Part shown: one piece after another, positions 5,500 to 13,371 of the stretch
Numbering within the stretch: position 1 is the stretch's first letter
Layout: every line of letters starts with the position of its first letter
Virus record (IMG/VR): IMGVR_UViG_3300020577_005800
Location: 6,044 to 70,043 of that record
DNA length: 64,000 bases
Source: a virus
Taxonomy: Duplodnaviria; Caudoviricetes
Direction: 5' to 3' (one strand)
Translations under genes and position numbers: made by a program
The notes under the pieces: generated by a model
What the model was told of the DNA's origin: nothing
What the model saw: only the letters and a program-made list of their open reading frames with translations
Databases searched by the model: none

Positions 5500-6225
5500 A
5501 TGGGCGTCAAGTATGTCACGCGCTCGTCCCACGGCAACGTGCAGACCGCGCCCCCGCGCTTCCGATTCACGTTCGACAGAACGGGTAATCTGGACCATCT
5601 GAACCAACTCGTGATGGAACTCGTCGATAAGACGAGCACCCAGCAGTGGTCTCCGGATTTGGTTCAGTTCGTCCATGTGAATCTCCTGTGGGCGAAGATT
5701 CAGCCGTTCATCGGCCGGGGTCTGCATAAGGAGATGACGCGCCCGATGTTCTACGGTGCGCTCAAGTCCATTGCGTTCCAGCCGGAGCGGGCTGAACGCA
5801 AGAACAGCATCATCCGCTCGACGGGCAAGGCGCTGCCTCTCTGCGTGACGAAGCTGCCGGAGATGAAGGCAGGGCGTATCCCCAACAACACCACCTGCGA
5901 ATTGGATTTTAGCAAATTCGACCTCGCGCTCCTCGGCAAGCTGCTCAACGAGAAGAACGAGGAATGGACGACGCTGGATATTGAGCAGTGTCTTCCTATT
6001 TTCCAGTTCTGCCGCGAGTTCACCGGATCGGTTACGGCGGTGGTCGAGCACGAAGGGAAGCGGGTTGACATTTCCCGCGTAGCAGGGCTAGATGCGGACA
6101 ATCTCGCGCCGGGCGTGAAGCACTGGGAGATTCATTCAATCCTCCGCACCCCGCTCGGGGAACACGTGCTCCCGAATCCGACGCGCCTGCCGCCGTACTA
6201 TATTCCGGCGATTTTCGAGGAGTAA
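5500..6225 (+). CDS. Hypothetical protein
   Basis: 241-aa ORF with RBS. Confidence 0.75.
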   Translation: MGVKYVTRSSHGNVQTAPPRFRFTFDRTGNLDHLNQLVMELVDKTSTQQWSPDLVQFVHVNLLWAKIQPFIGRGLHKEMTRPMFYGALKSIAFQPERAERKNSIIRSTGKALPLCVTKLPEMKAGRIPNNTTCELDFSKFDLALLGKLLNEKNEEWTTLDIEQCLPIFQFCREFTGSVTAVVEHEGKRVDISRVAGLDADNLAPGVKHWEIHSILRTPLGEHVLPNPTRLPPYYIPAIFEE

Positions 6226-6229
6226 TCAA

Positions 6230-6634
6230 ATGACCAAGCCGCTGACCGCTCAGATCAACATCACCGATTCCGAGACGGGCGCCGTCTTCCCAGGCATCCT
6301 CTTCCGCCTCTCGCCGTGCTCGCGCGGTGGGGTGGAGGCGACGGATATCGAGATGTTCTCGTATCTCGTTGCCAAGGTCGTGGATGACCTCACCGTGAAG
6401 TATGATCGCGTCCTGACCCAGTTCGCGCACGCGCGTTCGCAGCCGGAAGAGGCCGAGGGCATCGATCGCGTGCGCCGCTGCTATCACGTGCTGCTCGGTA
6501 TCAACGAGGCCGCCGTCGTGGTGAAGGGCTTCCTCGCCGAGTTCCCGAACGCTGCGCAGCAGAAGGCTCGTTCGAGCGAGACCGCGCTTCGCATCATGGA
6601 GCGCGTCATGGGTCTCCCGTTCTTTCCCGGTTGA
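6230..6634 (+). CDS. Hypothetical protein
   Basis: 134-aa ORF, GAGGAG RBS. Confidence 0.75.
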   Translation: MTKPLTAQINITDSETGAVFPGILFRLSPCSRGGVEATDIEMFSYLVAKVVDDLTVKYDRVLTQFAHARSQPEEAEGIDRVRRCYHVLLGINEAAVVVKGFLAEFPNAAQQKARSSETALRIMERVMGLPFFPG

Positions 6635-6713
6635 CAATCGGGCCAGAAAAGGCGATTTAATCATTCGTCCGTCGCGCCGGAAACGCGACAAAGCAACAAC
6701 CCTGGAGGCAGAC

Positions 6714-6995
6714 ATGAGTGACGAGAAGACGATTTCGGTTTCCGACGCCAAGGCGGTCGTGAAGAACTGGAAGAACGCGCGCAAGGAGGTCGAAGAGGCC
6801 CAGGCGCTCGTCGAGCAGAAGAAGGAGGCCCTGAACGACATCGCGAACAACGCCGTCGCGAGTCTCTCGGGCATCCTGTTCCGCGAGAAGGACGGCACGC
6901 TCCGTTTCTTCGGCGGCACCCGTGGCGGCAACATCACGCTTCGCGCGTCCCCGCCGAAGATGAACGTCGCCGAGCGTCGGGTCATCGACCTCTGA
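6714..6995 (+). CDS. Hypothetical protein
   Basis: 93-aa ORF, GGAGG RBS. Confidence 0.75.
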   Translation: MSDEKTISVSDAKAVVKNWKNARKEVEEAQALVEQKKEALNDIANNAVASLSGILFREKDGTLRFFGGTRGGNITLRASPPKMNVAERRVIDL

Positions 6996-7002
6996 GAATG
7001 AA

Positions 7003-7039
7003 CTACTAATTTCCTACTAAAGTCGGTAGGAATTAGTAG
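7003..7039. terminator. AT-rich hairpin, possible terminator or processing site
   Basis: CTACTAAT(T)TCCTAC/GTAGGAATTAGTAG inverted repeat with one bulge, intergenic. Confidence 0.45.
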
Positions 7040-7069
7040 ATAGACACAGCAACCCAAGGAGCACAGCAC

Positions 7070-7393
7070 ATGAGTGACACCCCAACCCCGGCCGAGGTCG
7101 CGGCCAACTTCCAGAACGGCATGTTCAGCGTCGTCGACACCCGCACGGGCGCGAATCTCGTCGTGGGCCTCAAGACCAAGGCGGCGGCGATCAAGGCAGC
7201 CGAGGACACCGACGAGTTCCAGGAGCTTCAGGAGGGCCAGAGCCTCGCGATCACCAAGGTCGTCGACGAGGTGGTCCCGGTCTTCAAGCGCACCGCCGCT
7301 ACGAAGCCGAAGGCCGGCAAGAAGCGCGCGAAGGTCCAGGAGGACGCTGCCGAGAAGGCGGCCGAGACCGACGAGGACGGCGACGACGAGTGA
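7070..7393 (+). CDS. Hypothetical protein with Lys/Ala-rich and acidic tail
   Basis: 107-aa ORF, AAGGAG RBS. Confidence 0.75.
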   Translation: MSDTPTPAEVAANFQNGMFSVVDTRTGANLVVGLKTKAAAIKAAEDTDEFQELQEGQSLAITKVVDEVVPVFKRTAATKPKAGKKRAKVQEDAAEKAAETDEDGDDE

Positions 7394-7516
7394 AATCCGA
7401 CTCCACGCCCTGATAGGGCTCTGAGTCCGATGAGCGAGAGGGAGTAATCCCACCTCTCGTGCTCTTGCCGGGATTGTGCCCCGCCTTCGCGATTTGTCCC
7501 GAGGGCGCGGCTTCAT
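7394..7516 (+). ncRNA. Unassigned structured RNA candidate upstream of tRNA-Pro
   Basis: Nested stems GACTC/GAGTC around GCCC/GGGC; GAGC-GAGAG-GGA(GTAA)TCC-CTCTC-GCTC hairpin; 12-pair hairpin with one mismatch at 7478-7511. Confidence 0.4.
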
Positions 7517-7593
7517 CTGGAATTAGCTCAGCTTGGTAGAGCGTCGGCTTTGGGAGCCGAATGTCGCAGGTTCAAGTCCTGCATTCCAGACCA
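7517..7593 (+). tRNA. trnP: tRNA-Pro(TGG)
   Basis: Full cloverleaf: CTGGAAT/ATTCCAG acceptor, TCGGC-TT-TGG-GA-GCCGA anticodon arm, TTCAAGT T-loop, encoded CCA. Confidence 0.97.
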
Positions 7594-7689
7594 GACATCC
7601 GGAGGCATACCGGATTAGTCATATCCTACAGGTGCTCGTGCCGCGAGGCCCTGTCAGGATCTCATGTGAGTGACGTAGGTATGACGCCC
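7594..7689 (+). ncRNA. Structured inter-tRNA spacer
   Basis: Hairpins ATCCGG/CCGGAT and ATCCT-ACAGG...CCTGT-AGGAT; alternative long-range pairings CATACC/GGTATG and GTCA/TGAC. Confidence 0.35.
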
Positions 7690-7725
7690 GCCCTCGTCGG
7701 AGGTCCACCCGAGACGAGGGCACCA
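7690..7725 (+). ncRNA. CCA-tailed tRNA-like minihelix candidate
   Basis: GCCCTCGTC...GACGAGGGC-A-CCA, ending one base before tRNA-Asn. Confidence 0.45.
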
Positions 7726-7726
7726 T

Positions 7727-7804
7727 GGCTGGGTAGCTCAGTTGGTTTAGAGCAGCGGGCTGTTAACCCGCTTGTCGGACGTTCGAGTCGTCCCCCGGCC
7801 TCCA
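7727..7804 (+). tRNA. trnN: tRNA-Asn(GTT)
   Basis: Cloverleaf with GCGGG-CT-GTT-AA-CCCGC anticodon arm, TTCGAGT T-loop and CCA; discriminator is T. Confidence 0.95.
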
Positions 7805-7812
7805 GTTGCTTT

Positions 7813-7866
7813 CGACCCCCGCGCGTGAGTCTCGACGATTCCTCTCGCGCGGGGTCGCCTCTTTTA
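7813..7866 (+). terminator. Long hairpin with T-tract between tRNA-Asn and tRNA-Glu
   Basis: CGACCCC(C)GCGCG/CGCGCGGGGTCG followed by CCTCTTTT. Confidence 0.5.
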
Positions 7867-7867
7867 T

Positions 7868-7943
7868 GGGGCGTTCGTCCAGCGGTCTAGGACGCTGGCC
7901 TTTCACGCCAGTAACACGGGTTCAAATCCCGTACGCCCTACCA
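7868..7943 (+). tRNA. trnE: tRNA-Glu(TTC)
   Basis: Cloverleaf with CTGGC-CT-TTC-AC-GCCAG anticodon arm, TTCAAAT T-loop and CCA. Confidence 0.97.
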
Positions 7944-7960
7944 ACGGAGAAAGGAATCAA

Positions 7961-8671
7961 ATGCTGAACGACAATTACTGGGAGAAGGTGATTGCGGATG
8001 GTTCGGTTCGTCCCCTGAAGGGGCATCTCACGTGTGAGAAGTACCACCAGAGCGTGGTGGAGCACGTGGAGGGAATCGGAGACATCCCCATCTCTGGCGT
8101 CACCGAAGGCGGGCTCGTCATCGTCGGGACGGACGACACCGAAGCGGAAGACGTGAAGGCGTTCATGCTCCGTGTTCGCATCGTAGGAGAAGACCCCGAG
8201 GCATGGAAGTTCCGCTTCTTCGGTAAGGAGCGCGACTACCGAACCAACTTCGAGACGCAGCGTATTCGCCCTGGGGTGATCATCGCTGTGCGCGGCGTCG
8301 CGGGCGCGAACCAGAGCAAGAACTCGCACATCATCGACATTCGCTACGACGAAATCGTGGCGATCGGCACGCCCAGGGGAGAGTCCCCCGCGATGCTCCC
8401 GGCCCCGGGCTGGGTGCTCGTGGAGCATCTCGACCCCGAGCCCAAGAGCCGGCTGCATATCAGCGCCGGGGCCGAGCAGATCACTCAGGAGGGTAATGTG
8501 CGTTGGGGACGGGTCATCGGGCTCGCTCGGGGCACTGATTCCTTCGGACTCTCGCTGGGCGATGAAATCTGCTTCCCCTCGCACGGCGGTGTCGGGGCGA
8601 CGGAACTCGTGCAGTTCGAGGATGGTCGCCTGCGCTGCTTGCCGCTCGACGACGTGTACGGTACGCGATGA
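7961..8671 (+). CDS. Tandem GroES/Cpn10-like co-chaperonin
   Basis: Two GroES-like units: RPLKGHL...GVIIAV...IRYDEIVAI and PAPGWVLVE...GRVIGL...GDEICF...LDDVYG. Confidence 0.65.
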   Translation: MLNDNYWEKVIADGSVRPLKGHLTCEKYHQSVVEHVEGIGDIPISGVTEGGLVIVGTDDTEAEDVKAFMLRVRIVGEDPEAWKFRFFGKERDYRTNFETQRIRPGVIIAVRGVAGANQSKNSHIIDIRYDEIVAIGTPRGESPAMLPAPGWVLVEHLDPEPKSRLHISAGAEQITQEGNVRWGRVIGLARGTDSFGLSLGDEICFPSHGGVGATELVQFEDGRLRCLPLDDVYGTR

Positions 8672-10846: not shown

Positions 10847-13371
10847 GCGTCGTACGTGTCAAAGACGGCGGCCTCGCCTTCGACCAGCGAATGGAGGAAA
10901 TCCTGGTCTGGCCGGGACAGGCGGATTTCCTTCAGGCGTCAGCGAAGAAGATCGGCCTCTTTACGGGCGCCGGCTACGGCAAGTGCTTTAGGAAGGATAC
11001 CGAGATCCTTATGGCCTCTGGAGAGGTCAGAAAGGTACAAGACATCGTGATCGGAGATCGTGTCGCAGGACTTACGGGAACTCGGATAGTTCAAAATACC
11101 GCACGAGGATTTGGACAGATGTTCGAGGTGCGTCCTGTTAAAGGTGAGTCGCATTTTGTTAATGCTGATCACATCCTTACGTTGGTGTGCAGCGGGACCA
11201 AGGAGTTCTCGAAGTGGAAGGATGGAGACCTTCGAGACGTGCCGGTGAGGGAGTGGCTGACCTGGGGTCCGGCCATGAAGAAGCGTTGGAAATTGTTCAA
11301 GGTTGGTTTAGATTTTGAGGGTAACAAGGCGCCGATTGAAGTGGACCCATACGTGTTTGGACTGCTGTTGGGCGACGGAAACATTACTCAGACAGTCGGT
11401 TTCACCACCATGTCTCCAGTGCTCGTGGAGGCGTTTAAGACAGAAGCCGCACGCTTCGGCTTGCATGTCACCACTTCAGGGGAGGATAGAACAGCGCCGA
11501 CTTACTATGCTGTAGGAACTGCCGGGAAGACCAATCCGCTGACTACGGCTTTGAGGAAACTAAGAATTTTCGGTAAGACCTCGGCCGACAAATTCATTCC
11601 TTTTGAGTACAAAACAGGGTCGAGAGAGGTTAGACAGCAAATTCTTGCGGGTCTGATGGATACCGACGGCTCGGTCAATCTCAATTGCTACGATTATGTC
11701 TCCAAGTCGAAGCAGTTGGCCGATGATGTGGTATTTATTGCTCGCTCCTTGGGAATTTCGGCGACCATCAACCAGTGCGTGAAATCTTGCCAAACTGGAG
11801 CAGCGGGAACATACTGGAGAGTTTCACTCTCGGACGTGAGTCAGATTCCGTCGCGTATAAAACCCGTTCCCGAGCGACGCCAGATCAAGAATCCGTTGCG
11901 TACAGGATTCGACATTATTCCTCTAGGCAATGAGGAGTATTACGGGTTTGCCTTGGACGGGGATGCGCGCTTCCTGTTGGCCGACTTCACGGTGACTCAC
12001 AACTCGAAGGTGCTCGTCATGCGCGCCTTGATGGATCACGCCAAGCAGGATGGCTGGTGGGAGGGCCGTCTGGACTACGACGAGAACCCGCTTGTGATGG
12101 TCATGGCCGCTCCGAATTCTGCATATCTGACTCGACGTACGGTGCCGGAATTTCGAGGCACTCTAGCGTCGTGGGAGGAGAAGATCGGCCGCCAACTCAC
12201 AAAGCCCACCGGACGCGCCCGCAACGGCTGGTTTGATTCAAAAGACGAACGTCGCTGCGAGATGGCGAACGGGGTCAAGTTCCTGTTCTACGGCATGCAC
12301 GACGAGAAGGCCGCCGTCGCATCGGACATTATCGCGCTGTACATGGACGAGGCGACGATGCTCGAAAACGAGCAAATCTACTCGCGCGCCAAGAACCGCG
12401 TTCGTGACTCTCGCGGCATGGACGGCTTCCTTCTCGTGGCCTGTGTAGGCACGCCCGAGAAGGGACACTTCATGTACGACGAGTTCTACGACCCGGACAC
12501 CGATATTCCTCGCGCAGGCGTCCAGGTGTTCGCGGATACGTCGCTGAACAACCCCACCCTCACGTGGAAATTCTGTGACGACATGGTGGGCAACTCGGAA
12601 GCCTATATCGAAATGCAGGCAATGGGTAAGTGGGTGAAAGGCATTGGCGGCCAGCGCTTCGCTCACCTATTTGAGGAAGAACGGCATCTCAAGGTGTTGG
12701 ACTGGCCTGTCGATTATCCCGGTATCAAGTACGACATCGGCTGGGATCCAGGCTGGTCCACCGGGTCCGTCATCGTTGCCTATCACCATCCCCAGAAAAA
12801 CATTTGGTGCATTTACGACGAAATCGTCATTCAGGGAATGAACACTGAGGATGCCGCCAAGGAACTCCTCAAGCGCGGGTACAATTGGAATAACATTCGC
12901 TATATCGGGATGGACCCTCGCGATGCGAGCAAGCACCGTTCGAGCGGCAAGCACACCGATGCGGACATTGTTTTCAAGGTTCTGCGCGTTCGCCCGCACT
13001 ACAAGGACGTGCGAGGCTACAACGCCGTATTGCGGTTGCGTCTTGAGGCGCTGGAAGAATTGCTTAAAAATGACCGCATCGTCTTCAACAAGCGCCTGAA
13101 GCCGACCAACCGTAAGAAAGGCGGAATCATCAACGGAATCAAGAACTTCGCGCTCGAAGCCATCAAGGACATGGACGAGAAGTTCGAGGACAAGCCCGAC
13201 GCGGCCACCATCAAATACTGGAAGCATCCGATCGATGCGCTCCACTACATCCTGATGGAGTACGAGCACAACACCTACGGCAAGGCCGTGCGCGACTTCA
13301 AGGCGGATAAGTTGGCAGCGAAGACGTTCGGCGGCTTCAAGAAGTACAGTCGGCACACACGGAGGTCATAA
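10843..13371 (+). CDS. terL: Terminase large subunit containing an intein
   Basis: Walker A GAGYGK|S split by the intein, Walker B LYMDEA, coupling motif VGTP, nuclease IGWDPG and HPIDALHY. Confidence 0.93.
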   Translation: MSVVRVKDGGLAFDQRMEEILVWPGQADFLQASAKKIGLFTGAGYGKCFRKDTEILMASGEVRKVQDIVIGDRVAGLTGTRIVQNTARGFGQMFEVRPVKGESHFVNADHILTLVCSGTKEFSKWKDGDLRDVPVREWLTWGPAMKKRWKLFKVGLDFEGNKAPIEVDPYVFGLLLGDGNITQTVGFTTMSPVLVEAFKTEAARFGLHVTTSGEDRTAPTYYAVGTAGKTNPLTTALRKLRIFGKTSADKFIPFEYKTGSREVRQQILAGLMDTDGSVNLNCYDYVSKSKQLADDVVFIARSLGISATINQCVKSCQTGAAGTYWRVSLSDVSQIPSRIKPVPERRQIKNPLRTGFDIIPLGNEEYYGFALDGDARFLLADFTVTHNSKVLVMRALMDHAKQDGWWEGRLDYDENPLVMVMAAPNSAYLTRRTVPEFRGTLASWEEKIGRQLTKPTGRARNGWFDSKDERRCEMANGVKFLFYGMHDEKAAVASDIIALYMDEATMLENEQIYSRAKNRVRDSRGMDGFLLVACVGTPEKGHFMYDEFYDPDTDIPRAGVQVFADTSLNNPTLTWKFCDDMVGNSEAYIEMQAMGKWVKGIGGQRFAHLFEEERHLKVLDWPVDYPGIKYDIGWDPGWSTGSVIVAYHHPQKNIWCIYDEIVIQGMNTEDAAKELLKRGYNWNNIRYIGMDPRDASKHRSSGKHTDADIVFKVLRVRPHYKDVRGYNAVLRLRLEALEELLKNDRIVFNKRLKPTNRKKGGIINGIKNFALEAIKDMDEKFEDKPDAATIKYWKHPIDALHYILMEYEHNTYGKAVRDFKADKLAAKTFGGFKKYSRHTRRS
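10984..12003 (+). mobile_element. 340-aa intein with LAGLIDADG homing endonuclease
   Basis: Begins CFRKDTEIL, ends FTVTHN followed by Ser; motifs GLLLGDG and LAGLMDTDG. Confidence 0.95.

Follow-up and report, generated by a model that had tools for sequence, protein, structure and literature searches.

A conserved phage RNA minihelix that resembles the top half of a tRNA

Among the tRNA genes of an uncultivated phage lies a 36-nt hairpin that ends, as the tRNAs of the same array do, in an encoded CCA, and the question raised by this locus is whether the hairpin is a chance structure, what is left of a tRNA gene, or an RNA in its own right, and in the last case what part it might play. The window, i.e. 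the whole stretch of DNA analysed here (64,000 nucleotides), covers bases 6044-70043 of a 70,043-bp record of an uncultivated virus that is about 95% complete, and identical copies of the same phage are found in wastewater and river metagenomes. Laboratories have worked with minihelices for forty years to study RNase P, aminoacyl-tRNA synthetases, EF-Tu and the CCA-adding enzyme. A full-text literature search returned no description of a natural, conserved, phage-encoded minihelix, Rfam 15 holds no family for the element, and the GenBank records of the phages that carry it leave the region unannotated. The comparisons presented here indicate that the minihelix is a real, conserved and selected phage RNA motif, a kind of tRNA mimic that had so far escaped annotation. 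Its family is marked by covariation in the stem, an invariant loop, an encoded ACCA and a single copy per genome. Cultured, genetically tractable phages of Xanthomonas and Stenotrophomonas are among its carriers, so that its role in infection can be tested directly.

The minihelix and its tRNA array

The element lies between tRNA-Pro and tRNA-Asn (Table 1). The sequence-only reading of this DNA had described a 9-bp stem with a discriminator A and an encoded CCA, placed one base ahead of tRNA-Asn and lacking D and anticodon arms, and our analysis confirmed this description: ARAGORN and Rfam agree on G7727 as the start of tRNA-Asn, and no tRNA was found in 7594-7726 by ARAGORN (thresholds of 60-80%, intron mode included) or by Rfam (E <= 10), which at the same cutoff found no tmRNA or other family in this interval. 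The 14-nt loop is too small to hold the arms that are missing from a cloverleaf. The 36-mer has a fold energy of -21.4 kcal/mol (z = -4.0), and the fold of 7594-7726 as a whole gives z = -3.07. The base at position -1 of the minihelix is C and not the preferred U, which makes the leader an unusual one. A CCA is encoded in all three tRNAs of the array (Pro, Asn and Glu), and no gene for a CCA-adding enzyme was found in the genome.

Table 1. Coordinates of the minihelix and of the surrounding features in the window
Feature	Position	Strand	Description
tRNA-Pro(TGG)	7517-7593	+	First gene of the array; encoded CCA; ARAGORN, Rfam
Structured spacer, tRNA-Pro to minihelix	7594-7689	+	96 nt; long irregular hairpin whose closing pairs abut G7690
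Minihelix 5' arm	7690-7698	+	Perfect 9-bp pairing with 7713-7721; G7690 is equivalent to tRNA position +1
Minihelix apical part	7699-7712	+	14 nt, GGAGGUCCACCCGA, invariant; predicted 3x2 internal loop, two G-C pairs and 5-nt loop
Minihelix 3' arm	7713-7721	+	Pairs with 5' arm
Minihelix tail	7722-7725	+	Unpaired discriminator A7722, then encoded CCA (7723-7725)
Spacer U	7726	+	1 nt; position -1 of the tRNA-Asn precursor
tRNA-Asn(GTT)	7727-7804	+	Encoded CCA; ARAGORN; Rfam tRNA, 65.2 bits
tRNA-Glu(TTC)	7868-7943	+	Last gene of the array; encoded CCA; ARAGORN, Rfam

The minihelix has the ends of the RNase P model minihelices of McClain, Guerrier-Takada and Altman (reviewed in PMC11143913), i.e. 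a single hairpin without D or anticodon arm, with a G+1/C+72 pair at its end, a purine left unpaired at position 73, a 3' CCA and a predicted stack length similar to the ~12 bp of the models. The models are made in the laboratory and have 7 + 5 bp and a true T-loop, whereas the phage element is natural and has 9 bp and an invariant apex that falls outside the T-loop consensus. Two other classes of structured RNA were considered and rejected. The hairpin is followed by ACCAUGG and not by the U run of an intrinsic terminator, and the terminator scan makes no call there; a tmRNA, the two-piece form included, was found neither by ARAGORN in the whole window nor by Rfam in 7300-8000.

If we consider this genome by itself, the CCA tail is statistically no better than chance. 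Both strands of the 70-kb genome contain 226 perfect hairpins of at least 7 bp, and four of these are followed by NCCA, where ~1/64 is expected; at 9 bp or more there are 24 hairpins, one of which has the tail. We regard the element as real because the same loop and ACCA recur on a covarying stem in many other phages.

Elsewhere in the array, the interval between tRNA-Asn and tRNA-Glu (7805-7867) holds a GC-rich hairpin and then a T run. A stem at 7836-7857 is terminator-like according to the scan, and on inspection the arms can be drawn longer, from about 7813 to 7854. If this terminator works, tRNA-Glu would depend on read-through or on a promoter of its own. The 123 nt ahead of tRNA-Pro (7394-7516) are likewise highly structured.

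Conservation, genomic contexts and variants

The family came to light through a BLAST match aimed at the tRNAs. In Stenotrophomonas phage A1432 this match continued for 29 nt beyond the 5' end of tRNA-Asn, and there a 9-bp hairpin with the same 14-nt loop, ACCA and a single U precede tRNA-Ile. Four of its stem pairs are altered on both sides relative to the window. The paper on A1432 names only the tRNA-Ile (PMC11236537). About twenty phages share the element, with Xanthomonas, Stenotrophomonas and Variovorax as known hosts. The cultured carriers, found by BLAST with the A1432 region, number eleven: ten Bradleyvirinae (Mesyanzhinovviridae; A1432, Bosa, DLP4, Elanor, Xp12, DoCa6, AXL_1, DoCa5, Mallos and Xoo-sp2), in which the element directly follows the large terminase gene, and the unclassified Variovorax phage VBv52. 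The uncultivated carriers are the window phage and the contigs L013, L014/L033, L017, L018, L032 and L040.

Ten distinct 36-nt sequences were aligned (alignment A1), and all 90 of their 90 pair cells are paired, as against about 50% when the register is slid; compensatory changes affect seven of the nine stem pairs, and none of 500 shuffles reaches the observed values. The first G-C pair is invariant in A1 (10/10), the one exception in the family being L018, with a C-C mismatch at the end, and Xp12 and L018 have a tenth pair or a terminal mismatch. The 14-nt loop is identical in 17/17 tabulated elements, an invariance that is partly imposed by searches anchored on the loop, with Pseudomonas phage PaMx74 the only element with a diverged loop. 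The ACCA is kept in every member of the family, whether a tRNA, a terminator or an open reading frame comes next. In all four wobble pairs the U belongs to the 5' arm and the G to the 3' arm, and the opposite strand would have C-A mismatches in their place; thus the helix can arise only in RNA of the tRNA sense. By covariance model, the window, Bosa, A1432, Xoo-sp2, Mallos and the L017 contig have exactly one copy each.

Matches to the loop motif that arise by chance, in bacteria, metagenomes or viral contigs, never form the hairpin. An IMG/VR scan with the loop and its closing pair (16 nt; CCA not demanded) gave nine matches; five are perfect 9-bp hairpins, and every one of these has the ACCA, while the remaining four are non-hairpins in coding DNA and the tail is present in none of them. 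The loop followed by CACCA matched nine times in 185,579 bacterial and archaeal genomes (0/9 hairpins) and 21 times in JGI metagenomes, where three of the matches are family hairpins. With two relaxed loop patterns there were 143 matches in the fetched IMG/VR loci, none of them a family hairpin or a hairpin bearing a single-site variant of the loop, and patterns for the exact stem and for tRNA-Asn had no match in IMG/VR. The lack of hairpins among the bacterial and archaeal matches marks the element as specific to phages. A BLAST overlap at the CCA in the Stenotrophomonas jumbo phage RAS14 was rejected, since the 'CACCAA' there occurs by chance and has no hairpin.

Among close relatives of the window phage, five Logan contigs (L003-L007) match the region at 100% and leave no variation to analyse, and contigs from four more runs on the phage show no differences; the sole relative at 87% identity is a 3,268-bp JGI contig (sample 3300071358), with a gap of 556 nt vs 568 nt. 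Two wastewater metatranscriptome runs contain the region as identical contigs of low depth, about that of the flanking genes, at which RNA ends are not resolvable. The downstream 236-aa gene has 45-55% relatives in L002, L008 and L009, all of which lack the tRNA array.

The surroundings of the element differ from one carrier to the next. A tRNA follows after 1-6 nt in the window, A1432, Xoo-sp2, Elanor, VBv52, DoCa5, PaMx74 and L017, and its type varies among Asn, Ile, Met, a tRNA-like gene whose anticodon loop carries a 22-nt insert and a tRNA with an 8-nt anticodon loop. Such spacing is typical of the family, and supports the earlier expectation that 5' processing of tRNA-Asn would nearly free the 3' end of the hairpin. 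In Mallos, L013, L014 and L033 the next feature, ~10 nt on, is an intrinsic terminator. In L018 a tail gene and a tail-chaperone gene are separated by 60 nt, and the element is by itself in this gap, with the ribosome-binding site of the chaperone gene next to it. Upstream of the element, the Bradleyvirinae have a conserved, structured non-coding RNA of ~170 nt that begins at the TerL stop codon (alignment A2); its closing helix ends 2 nt ahead of the minihelix and shows one compensatory change, in Xp12. By nhmmer the window flanks 7394-7516 and 7594-7689 have no similarity to this RNA, and we rejected the idea that they are a split homologue of it, the resemblances at TCCGAC and CCGATGAG not being significant.

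The gene contents of the carriers differ as well. The only proteins detectably common to the window phage and Bosa are a 551-aa protein and a DNA ligase, and no common protein was detected between the window phage and Mallos; on these grounds we rejected a phage-encoded partner protein present in all carriers. Because the contexts vary and the window phage and Bosa have only these two detectable proteins in common, the element is an autonomous, portable module that behaves like a tRNA gene without its lower half and occupies a 'tRNA slot'. The 551-aa protein itself (5678-7333 of the genome, up to 1290 of the window; 79-1734 of L212) belongs to phrog_1735, has no Pfam or PDB match, and is 34% identical to its homologue in Bosa and 36% identical to that in the L017 contig.

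Some relatives have lost or replaced parts of the design. PaMx74 retains the position, an 8-bp stem and the ACCA, with a different apical part of 17 nt, and folds into 13 pairs with a tetraloop (8 + 1 + 4 bp). In FMYAK-P1 and DoCa10 the conserved loop is absent, and a plain hairpin of 13 bp, with 5 nt in its loop, precedes AACCACCA. Donnerlittchen has no hairpin, its tRNA-Met directly following the upstream RNA. The three apical designs (the main one with 9 bp, internal loop and 2 bp, that of PaMx74, and that of FMYAK-P1 and DoCa10) converge on a similar rod length, all with CCA, so that the designs have in common a rod about 13-14 stacked layers long, with CCA at its end. The specific loop is retained in most members and not in all, and may be dispensable; FMYAK-P1, DoCa10 and Donnerlittchen suggest that in some members the role is more generic.

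In FMYAK-P1 (L060 1286-1324) and DoCa10 (L061 1642-1680), the tail of the replacement hairpin, AACCACCA, is a doubled CCA. It is reminiscent of the CCACCA tag by which unstable tRNAs are marked for decay, a resemblance that may be coincidental.

A proposed processed tRNA mimic and the competing explanations

The reading that we favour, at a probability of roughly one half, is that the minihelix is a conserved, portable mimic of the tRNA top half, matured by the tRNA-processing enzymes of the host, with a loop that would bind a partner, probably from the host. Its processing, its stability and its partner we infer as follows. Maturation by RNase P is proposed because the invariant features of the element match the known determinants of RNase P substrates: bacterial RNase P recognises the G+1/C+72 pair, a purine discriminator and the CCA, which pairs with the P15 loop, and the E. 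coli RNase P RNA cleaves model hairpins that join an acceptor stem to a T stem-loop (PMC11143913). Polycistronic tRNAs of E. coli are also separated by RNase P (PMC2190699). A cut at the 5' end of tRNA-Asn would leave the minihelix ending in ACCA-U, which exonuclease trimming would convert to CCA-OH, and a second cut by RNase P, 5' of G7690, would release a stable 36-nt RNA. If this 5' cut does not take place (the upstream helix that abuts G7690 could hinder it), the spacer would stay attached and yield a CCA-ended RNA of ~132 nt. The invariant apical part would lengthen the stack to about 13-14 layers, and the loop would be read by a sequence-specific partner, because it is identical in phages with almost no genes in common; since the carriers have almost no proteins in common, this partner is probably a host factor, presumably one that handles tRNA acceptor ends. 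Several observations count against the proposal: in the window the tRNAs on both sides make an extra processing signal redundant; the element lacks a canonical T-loop and has a 9-bp stem where the models have 7 + 5 bp; its leader has C at position -1 and an upstream hairpin that closes against G7690; and FMYAK-P1, DoCa10 and Donnerlittchen lack the loop, whose invariance owes something to loop-anchored searches.

Other roles for the loop were tried and set aside. As an antisense sequence or mimic it was rejected, since its matches with at most two mismatches in two bacterial genomes are at the level of a reversed-pattern control. Complementary runs of at least 9 nt show no clear excess over mononucleotide shuffles (11 observed vs ~17 expected in the phage's own genome, 27 vs ~16.5 in Bosa and 22 vs ~16 in Mallos) and no common target. 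By inspection we also considered the loop as a K-turn, T-loop, CsrA GGA site or Shine-Dalgarno mimic, and dismissed these readings because the PaMx74 variant has none of the motifs.

The element might act merely as a processing signal akin to a t-element, recruiting RNase P to define the ends of its neighbours and leaving the released hairpin as a functionless by-product, and this we regard as doubtful. Several contexts speak for it: the minihelix ends the ~170-nt conserved non-coding RNA in Bradleyvirinae, a tRNA-Met takes its place directly after that RNA in Donnerlittchen, a generic 13-bp hairpin with CCA is substituted in FMYAK-P1 and DoCa10, and the site in L018, between a tail gene and a chaperone gene, is a typical point of mRNA processing; the t-elements of plant mitochondria act likewise (PMC1920247). 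Such a signal would be superfluous, however, in the window, where the two flanking tRNAs already supply RNase P sites, and in most Bradleyvirinae too, where a tRNA follows within 1-6 nt, and a mere signal needs no identical 14-nt loop across phages with almost no common genes. If instead the hairpin were retained as a 3'-terminal cap, it would be a tRNA-like 3' end that keeps 3' exonucleases out and that the CCA-adding enzyme repairs. Such a role, that of a 'telomere', has been proposed for the corresponding ends of plant RNA viruses. A cap would suit the structured domain that abuts the minihelix in the window, the closing helix (with its compensatory change in Xp12) that stops 2 nt short of it in Bradleyvirinae, and L018, where it directly follows the stop codon of a tail gene of an abundant class. 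The upstream partner is wholly different between contexts, however, the transcripts of Mallos, L013 and L014 are already protected by the 3' hairpin of a terminator, and a cap does not require the invariant G+1/C+72 pair, and we therefore consider this explanation improbable.

The element could also serve in host takeover or against host defences, as an anticodon-less, CCA-ended decoy or inhibitor whose loop binds one host enzyme that acts on acceptor ends, in effect an 'aptamer on a tRNA handle'; we think this unlikely, if slightly less so than a cap. Candidate targets would be a CCA-modifying toxin of the CapRel or MenT type, an acceptor-stem nuclease, RNase P or the CCA-adding enzyme. The narrower form put forward by the sequence-only reading, in which the minihelix is a decoy for defence enzymes that attack the CCA end of tRNAs (toxSAS/CapRel pyrophosphokinases and MenT nucleotidyltransferases), perhaps together with a phage HD hydrolase, is a shade more improbable than the cap. 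It is compatible with all the structural findings: the element offers exactly an acceptor end, without an anticodon, it is phage-specific and conserved, and the invariant loop could confer high affinity for one partner. The hydrolase did not materialise, however, as no HD-domain gene (PF01966, PF13023, PF12917) was detected in the 70-kb genome; a single-copy gene would face a very large tRNA pool and would need very high affinity, the loop is naturally lost or replaced in close relatives, and we found no such decoy described in the literature. Least credible by far is the absence of any function, with the hairpin a product of chance, the remains of a decayed tRNA, the 3' fragment of a tRNA that integration left behind, or a DNA palindrome bound by protein. 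The chance rate of hairpins with NCCA in this genome would fit, as would the distant relatives (L002, L008 and L009) that lack the whole tRNA array. Against it stand the compensatory changes on both arms, the strand-specific wobbles and the retention of ACCA in all contexts. The relatives keep the minihelix and its CCA, with a full tRNA in its place in none of them, which rules out the deletion remnant that the earlier reading had named as a possible refutation, and an att site or tRNA 3' fragment was rejected, as it would comprise the 3' arm alone, whereas both arms are present here and covary. The lack of any exact-loop hairpin among the 185,579 bacterial and archaeal genomes also counts against an att fragment, and the A1432 paper reports no integrase gene (PMC11236537).

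The element can be compared with several known systems. In MALAT1/mascRNA, a tRNA-like fold defines the end of the neighbouring transcript. The t-elements of plant mitochondria have the same arrangement, a tRNA-like fold beside other RNAs where cuts by RNase P or RNase Z set the ends (Forner et al. 2007, PMC1920247). Both are degenerate cloverleaves of eukaryotic organelles or nuclei with no encoded CCA, whereas the phage element is a bare minihelix with an encoded CCA, found in phages of proteobacteria and also between two true tRNAs. Phage RNAs other than tRNAs that are matured by the tRNA-processing machinery include the species 1 and 2 RNAs of T4, the M3 RNA of phi80 and the C4 antisense RNA of P1/P7. 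These are unlike the element in size and sequence, and Rfam, which holds C4, has no match on it; to our knowledge none of them is a 36-nt CCA-minihelix. The tRNA-like structures of plant RNA viruses (Tymovirus, RF00233) and the tRNA-like domain of tmRNA share with the element an acceptor arm that ends in CCA. Their arm is built from a pseudoknot or from distant strands and is aminoacylated, whereas that of the phage element is a local helix without G3:U70, and the only RF00233 match in the region falls on tRNA-Glu. If the minihelix is only punctuation for RNase P, the t-element principle would hold in phages too; should it have its own target, it would represent a new class of small phage RNA that acts on the tRNA-handling machinery or on tRNA-directed immunity.

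Structured RNAs beside the minihelix

In Bradleyvirinae, the large terminase gene is followed by 0.6-0.9 kb of unannotated non-coding DNA (Bosa, L050 1173-1813; also L051-L055, L060, L061 and L010 1325-2320), and this seemingly 'empty' stretch is packed with structured RNAs. Its order is the ~170-nt structured RNA, the minihelix, a tRNA or tRNA-like gene, a conserved stretch of ~270 nt and a terminator, and the parts other than tRNAs have no match in Rfam. Two contigs of uncultivated carriers, L040 (2815-3091, minus strand) and L017 (5079-5327, minus strand), encode a complete permuted (two-piece) tmRNA (RF04321, 112 bits), which is separate from the minihelix and located two tRNAs downstream of it.

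The genes that follow the minihelix are themselves unusual in places. In Bosavirus a tRNA-like gene of 90-95 nt (L051 1382-1471, L053 1384-1478 and L054 1382-1471) has about 22 extra bases in its anticodon loop; Rfam scores it as a tRNA at 35 bits, ARAGORN is inconsistent and calls it Asn or Leu, and it may be an intron-containing or a non-decoding tRNA. In L017 the gene next after the minihelix (5730-5803, minus strand; Rfam tRNA, 47 bits) has an 8-nt anticodon loop in which ARAGORN reads a four-base anticodon, gcgg. Xoo-sp2 and FMYAK-P1 are said to lack tRNAs in the A1432 paper (PMC11236537); in Xoo-sp2, both ARAGORN and Rfam find an unannotated tRNA-Met(CAT), at 11369-11441 of the IMG/VR contig L012, which appears to be this phage.
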